Part shown: piece after piece, positions 13,981 to 14,036 of the stretch
Numbering within the stretch: position 1 is the first letter of the stretch
Layout: each line of letters starts with the position of its first letter
Source of the DNA: Escherichia coli
GTDB lineage: Bacteria > Pseudomonadota > Gammaproteobacteria > Enterobacterales > Enterobacteriaceae
Strand: one strand, 5' to 3'
Length of the DNA stretch: 64,000 nt
Assembly: GCF_003334405.1 (NCBI RefSeq)
Contig: NZ_QOWM01000005.1
Program-made: the position numbers and the translations under genes
Notes under the pieces: model-generated
Told to the model about the DNA's origin: nothing
What the model saw: only the letters and a program-made list of their open reading frames with translations
Databases searched by the model: none

Positions 13981-14036
13981 ATTCCCATAAACTCAGATCC
14001 TGCGTGAAGCAGCAGTAAATCTGAGTTTATGGGAAT
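13981..14036. promoter_or_regulatory. Pair of 18-bp MelR-type operator half-sites in inverted orientation upstream of melAB
   Basis: Perfect 18-bp inverted repeat attcccataaactcagat / atctgagtttatgggaat separated by 20 bp (centres 38 bp apart), read from the sequence; assignment to MelR sites is from recalled melAB promoter architecture. Confidence 0.55.

Follow-up and report, generated by a model that had tools for sequence, protein, structure and literature searches.

Work on the melibiose genes between the late 1980s and the 2000s established that activation depends jointly on an AraC-family protein and CRP and that autorepression proceeds through a multi-site complex. The operator that corresponds most directly to the DNA analyzed here is the melAB promoter of Escherichia coli K-12, as characterized by the Busby laboratory (Samarasinghe et al. 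2008; PMC2377442). In that account, the consensus 18-bp MelR site is present at both site 1 and site 2 and carries a G at positions 5 and 13, where N222 of the first helix-turn-helix motif (HTH1) is reported to contact base pair 5 and R273 of the second (HTH2) to contact base pair 13. The sites were assigned to MelR from mutational, footprint, and FeBABE data, and MelR footprints on the identical K-12 sequence have been published (Figure 8 legend in PMC2377442). On the map in the same source, site 2 has its center at −174.5 relative to where the melR transcript starts, and melR transcription begins 237 bp upstream of the melAB start. One CRP site (CRP1) separates sites 1 and 2, a second (CRP2) lies 41 bp before the melR start, and the melR −10 hexamer is given as CATAAT. 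Site R spans the melR start; its G5 agrees with the consensus, its A13 does not, and its orientation is opposite to that of site 2. Also described there are the occupancy of the sites with and without melibiose, the role of site 2', and the contribution of the upstream sites to autorepression (PMC2377442).

The araC–araBAD region, with its I1–I2 activation half-sites and its O2–I1 repression loop, shares much of this organization. At both loci an AraC-family regulator is encoded divergently from its target operon, asymmetric half-sites of ∼17–18 bp are each bound by one two-HTH domain, and a weak promoter-proximal site over the −35 region is filled only when the sugar is present. Both systems also use CRP as a co-activator and have distant sites that add to autorepression. 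Unlike the simple two-site loop of AraC, repression of melR is argued to use a complex of four MelR molecules (PMC2377442). The strong MelR sites differ further from those of AraC in forming an inverted pair that flanks the CRP site instead of a direct repeat, and CRP sits between the activator molecules. RhaS and RhaR, the AraC-family sugar regulators of rhaBAD and rhaSR, resemble MelR in that two 17-bp half-sites are arranged as an inverted repeat and CRP serves as co-activator. However, the Rha half-sites are imperfect, lie 16 bp apart, and are both occupied by one dimer, whereas the inverted sites at mel belong to two site pairs.

We examined a 64,000-nt stretch of E. coli DNA, hereafter the window, in which a long inverted repeat occupies the 282-bp gap between the divergent genes melA and melR (Table 1). 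The gene adiA is located beyond melR. The encoded MelR is intact, is identical to MelR of strain MG1655, and carries N222 and R273. Across the melR–melA gap, 321 of 321 bp are identical to K-12 MG1655, and this 321-bp region is present in 5,401 of 5,426 complete E. coli genomes. Thus the locus is the K-12 melAB promoter itself: The repeat shows no difference, and the register, the G residues at positions 5 and 13, the distances to both transcript starts, and sites 1', 2', R, CRP1, and CRP2 all match the published description.

The window as a whole is ∼99.9% identical to K-12 MG1655. It is collinear with MG1655 positions 4291814–4355813 except for ∼34 substitutions and two tandem REP-containing (BIME-like) arrays. 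One array (29430–29809) has 3.8 copies of a 100-bp period, two units fewer than in MG1655, and the other (59181–59668) has 4.3 copies of a 113-bp period, one unit fewer. Because of these substitutions and differences in REP copy number, the source strain is a close relative of K-12 and not MG1655 itself.

Table 1. Genes, promoter elements, and protein sites at the melR–melAB region. Positions are those of the window; the last column gives variable alignment columns among seven E. coli sequences.
Feature	Position	Strand	Description	Variable columns
melAB operon	11024-13903	minus	regulated target; NCBIfam matches and MG1655 annotation	
melB	11024-12445	minus	NCBIfam MelB, 900.8 bits	
melA	12548-13903	minus	451-aa ORF; NCBIfam alpha-galactosidase, 735.9 bits	
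melAB transcript start (predicted)	13927	minus	24 nt upstream of melA ATG; 237 bp from melR start	
melAB −10-like CATGAT	13934-13939		precedes melAB start 13927	0
MelR site 2' (weak)	13961-13978		overlaps melAB −35 region; existence and role from PMC2377442	2/18
MelR site 2 (left arm)	13981-13998	minus	ATTCCCATAAACTCAGAT; reads ATCTGAGTTTATGGGAAT toward melA; 18/18 consensus, G5 and G13; −62.5 from melAB start, −174.5 from melR start	3/18
CRP1 (weak, 22 bp)	13998-14019		centered on dyad 14008.5, −81.5; placed by PMC2377442	
Spacer between arms (CRP1)	13999-14018		20 nt, CCTGCGTGAAGCAGCAGTAA	8/20
MelR site 1 (right arm)	14019-14036	plus	ATCTGAGTTTATGGGAAT, same 18-mer as site 2; −100.5 from melAB start	1/18
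MelR site 1'	14039-14056		center −120.5; 12/18 as CTCTGCTTTTCAGGTAAT on minus strand	3/18
Site 1'–CRP2 segment	14057-14111		most variable part of intergenic region	25/55
CRP2	14112-14133		class II, activates melR promoter; center −41.5 from melR start; 7/10 core	
melR −10 hexamer CATAAT	14152-14157	plus	given in PMC2377442; single occurrence in intergenic region	0
MelR site R	14157-14174	plus	autorepression; reads TTCTGATATTCCAGGAAA; 11/18, G5, A13; overlaps melR start	0/18
melR transcript start (predicted)	14164	plus	7 nt past last −10 base; fits the positions of site 2 (−174.5) and CRP2 (−41.5)	
melR	14186-15094	plus	AraC-family regulator of the sites; 302-aa ORF; NCBIfam MelR equivalog, 635.8 bits	

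The inverted repeat is real and far above chance. As the original prediction stated, its two 18-bp arms are exact reverse complements with 20 bp between them; their centers (13989.5 and 14027.5) are 38 bp apart. Perfect pairing stops at both ends, such that the arms cannot be extended by even one base inward or outward. Among perfect inverted repeats in the 64-kb window with loops of up to 60 nt, none is longer, and the runner-up has arms of 15 nt. Arms of at least 18 nt appeared in none of 100 first-order Markov randomizations, where the longest were 13 nt, and the analytic expectation for such a repeat is ∼6 × 10−5 per window. The 18-mer has no further match in the window when up to three mismatches are allowed.

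The positions of the arms relative to both promoters identify them as MelR operator sites 2 and 1. Given the published hexamer CATAAT and canonical spacing, the melR transcript is expected to start at position 14164. Moving 174.5 bp from this base leads to 13989.5, which is exactly the center of the left arm, and the 237-bp separation of the two starts puts the melAB start at 13927. Subtraction of 174.5 from 237 then places site 2 at −62.5, and the 38-bp spacing of the arms places site 1 at −100.5 and the dyad at −81.5. Because the transcript starts were derived arithmetically from the −10 hexamer, they carry an uncertainty of ∼1 bp. MelR site centers of −42.5, −62.5, −100.5, and −120.5, along with limits of −54 to −71 for site 2, are reportedly given in the abstracts by Belyaeva (2000), Wade (2001), and Grainger (2004), the −42.5 position of site 2' in the first of these. 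Besides following from the arithmetic, −62.5, −100.5, and −81.5 are reportedly the values in the papers by Belyaeva and colleagues (2000) and Wade and colleagues (2001).

Agreement between sequence and published map extends to the companion sites. When the intergenic region was scanned against ATCTGAGTTTATGGGAAT on both strands and without a positional prior, both arms matched at 18 of 18 positions, including G5 and G13, and the third-best match was site 1'. Site R, with G5 and A13, was recovered in the register of the arms, as were site 1' and CRP2; the last of these is also the best CRP-like 22-mer in the intergenic region and lies at exactly −41.5. A register shifted by 2 bp was considered and rejected: Although G5 and G13 are still obtained within the arms, the bases at site R no longer agree. 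This failure indicates that the 18-bp register is that of the perfect-repeat arms.

On these grounds we assign a probability of roughly 97% to the conclusion that the arms are MelR sites 2 and 1 of the divergent E. coli melR–melAB region. The identification was made via the text of Samarasinghe et al. (2008; PMC2377442) and not via the printed footprint figure. A full-text literature search with the site sequence itself returned no match, and the other MelR papers that were consulted contained no site coordinates. The original prediction had proposed MelR sites near −100.5 and −62.5, a melAB start near 13927, and a weak CRP site between the arms. The distances in PMC2377442 combined with the 38-bp spacing reproduce both site centers, the route through CATAAT, the melR start, and the 237-bp separation leads to the same base for the melAB start, and CRP1 is placed between the arms by the published map, on which its presence rests. 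From the letters alone, that prediction thus identified a classic regulatory element correctly and located the melAB start to the base. Sites 1 and 2 themselves are a textbook feature, long known in full mechanistic detail, and are not a discovery of this analysis.

Among the weak sites, site 1' matches the consensus at 12 of 18 positions on the minus strand versus five on the plus strand, and site 2' at seven of 18 on the plus strand, G5 and G13 among them, versus three on the minus strand. Judged by consensus match, both sites would read best in an orientation inverted relative to their strong neighbors. Their orientations were reportedly determined experimentally by FeBABE cleavage (Grainger et al. 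2003). An imperfect palindrome extends around the 18-bp arms to positions 13957–14060, with 42-nt arms that are 76% complementary, because the weak sites match inverted relative to the adjacent strong sites. The CTCTGCTTT half of site 1' is retained as far as Citrobacter and Serratia.

The CRP site that the published map places in the spacer is barely recognizable by sequence: The 22-mer centered on the dyad matches the CRP core at just five of 10 positions, which fits the designation of CRP1 as a weak site. Occupancy of CRP1 reportedly needs MelR (Wade et al. 2001), so a weak match is expected. Between E. coli haplotypes the spacer differs at eight of 20 positions while its length is always 20 bp, and no good CRP core match occurs in the spacer of any E. 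coli haplotype examined. The spacer sequence is unrelated in Citrobacter and Serratia, and its length is 21 bp in two Citrobacter species.

In the mechanism that follows, protein binding and function are taken from the literature, and the sequence, register, position, identity to K-12, and conservation come from the present analysis. One MelR monomer binds each asymmetric 18-bp arm via its two helix-turn-helix motifs, with HTH1 (N222) on base pair 5 and HTH2 (R273) on base pair 13. Since the arms are inverted, two bound MelR molecules face opposite ways across the 20-bp gap, where the weak CRP site is filled by CRP in an activating complex with MelR. Sites 1, 2, and the weaker 1' are occupied with or without melibiose, leaving the system “poised.” Filling of the weak site 2', over the −35 region of melAB, is the melibiose-dependent step. 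Optimal autorepression of melR requires the upstream sites in combination with site R at the start of the melR transcript.

Natural variation within E. coli reveals which parts of the region are held constant. The alignment comprises seven sequences that fall into three main haplotypes, and the number of variable columns ranges from zero at site R and the two −10 elements to 25 of 55 between site 1' and CRP2 (Table 1). The CRP2 half-sites are conserved across the haplotypes. Perfect 18/18 symmetry of the arms is confined to the K-12-like haplotype; in many E. coli genomes one arm matches at 17 of 18 positions. Other common haplotypes carry G15T in site 1 (14033), C3A in site 2 (13996), or A11T/T12C in site 2 (13987–13988), each without a compensating change in the opposite arm. 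Rough counts, defined as genomes within one mismatch over 104 bp among 5,426 complete E. coli genomes, are ∼2,024 for the K-12-like haplotype, ∼1,849 for the site 1 G15T haplotype, and at least ∼553 for site 2 C3A with a divergent spacer (8/20 differences), plus a further 408 at 95–99% identity to the last of these.

The variable segment 14057–14111 contains a G+C-rich stretch, CCCCTCGCCCCTCTGGGAAGAGGG, and the segment is shorter in Citrobacter and Serratia. The possibility that the G+C-rich stretch at 14057–14135 is a dispersed repeat was rejected because it is single-copy in E. coli genomes.

Conservation beyond E. coli was surveyed by a plain-DNA scan of the genomes of 100,044 species for the 10-nt cores of both arms separated by a gap of 24–28 nt. 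The scan detects just those genomes in which both cores are intact; it shows conservation where matches occur and is uninformative on unlisted genera. Matches were found in two other Escherichia species (20-bp spacer), in Citrobacter braakii and Citrobacter portucalensis (21-bp spacer), and in Serratia oryzae (20-bp spacer). The flanks of the two other Escherichia loci carry the E. coli mel promoter sequence, and in C. portucalensis and S. oryzae the arms are flanked by ORFs that fit the family models for alpha-galactosidase and MelR. When the loci are aligned across species, both arms are essentially invariant except at positions 17–18 of site 1, and the spacers are unrelated.

One further match, in a Bacillota metagenome-assembled genome, was rejected as an unrelated hairpin, in keeping with a rough estimate of ∼3 chance matches in the scan. 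At that locus (2564–2607), CATAAACTCAAATCCGGTAA-TCAT-TTACCAGATTTGAGTTTATG forms a 20-nt near-perfect hairpin between dkgA-like and bshB1-like genes that lie on the same strand. It is probably a terminator that has 10-nt cores in common with the mel repeat by chance.

A palindrome of this length might instead act as an RNA hairpin (a terminator, an attenuator, or a small-RNA stem) or as a DNA cruciform. Indeed, as single-stranded RNA the repeat is predicted to fold into an 18-bp stem with an energy of −39.5 kcal/mol (z = −9.5), and it gives sub-threshold Rfam matches to hairpin-shaped plant miRNA precursor models. However, such an energy is automatic for any perfect palindrome, and the Rfam matches score 18–27 bits against gathering thresholds of 100–107 bits. 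The repeat has no U-tract or terminator-like pattern on either strand, and neither a GC-rich stem followed by a U-tract nor a match to a curated RNA family was found. Moreover, it is upstream of both divergent starts (13927 leftward and 14164 rightward) and therefore lies in neither mRNA. A stem under selection should show the opposite of the substitutions G15T in site 1 and C3A in site 2, which are uncompensated and argue instead for sequence-specific recognition by a protein. We regard a structural role for the palindrome as very improbable. If a protein is the ligand, the perfect twofold symmetry could point to one dimeric regulator other than MelR, as is typical of dimeric-repressor operators, or to an extended CRP site, given that CRP binds at the dyad (PMC2377442). 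Neither proposal accommodates arm centers that are 38 bp apart, which is too far for one conventional dimer, or arms that each lack internal symmetry and span 18 bp, the length covered by one AraC-family monomer with two HTH motifs. Degenerate copies of the same 18-mer are also present at the published MelR sites 1' and R, the inter-arm sequence where a CRP dimer would be located is the least conserved part, and the mutational, footprint, and FeBABE data give the sites to MelR (PMC2377442). The chance that a different dimer or CRP alone explains the arms is about as small as that of the hairpin.

Perfect inverted repeats around a short variable core resemble miniature transposable elements, and the extended palindrome with its 42-nt arms could be viewed in the same light; the arms would then be terminal inverted repeats left over from a small mobile element or MITE. 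Against this, the repeat is single-copy: The 64-kb window contains no second match, and across 5,268 E. coli genomes the median number of places per genome is one. It occupies the orthologous melA–melR position in three genera, nothing in the sequence or alignments suggests flanking target-site duplications, and every base of the arms belongs to regulator sites that were assigned by experiment. A mobile origin is the least probable of these explanations, and no observation made here contradicts the identification of the arms as MelR sites 1 and 2.

Two irregularities in database entries for this region were encountered. At the E. coli AVS0225 locus (583–921), melR is annotated 24 nt longer than in the window (933 nt versus 909 nt), as it is in some RefSeq genomes. 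The longer annotation begins at the equivalent of window position 14162, with the codon ATA, inside site R and 2 nt upstream of the transcript start at 14164; it is probably an annotation artifact. At 310 and 313 aa, the Citrobacter and Serratia ORFs likewise have extended N termini. E. coli AQ15 (NZ_CP043487.1, 4466172–4471316), a genome labeled complete, contains only the melR-proximal 145 bp of the query, corresponding to window positions 14056–14200, a piece that keeps just the last base of site 1'. The piece is embedded among ∼20 short pseudogene fragments, derived from genes spread over the surrounding 60 kb, and lies beside an IS4-like element. The AQ15 state could reflect either extensive rearrangement or deletion of the region or an artifact of assembly.

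Since the operator and its mechanism are already established, what this analysis adds is solely descriptive: a phylogenetic footprint, in which the arms are conserved, the spacer sequence is free, and the spacer length is constrained, and a catalog of natural single-base variants of the two strong MelR sites in E. coli. Perfect symmetry of the arms is a trait of the K-12-like haplotype and is not species-wide. It is conceivable, though we consider it rather unlikely, that the operator and CRP1 variants could cause measurable differences among E. coli lineages in the inducibility of melAB, in co-dependence on CRP, or in the autorepression of melR.
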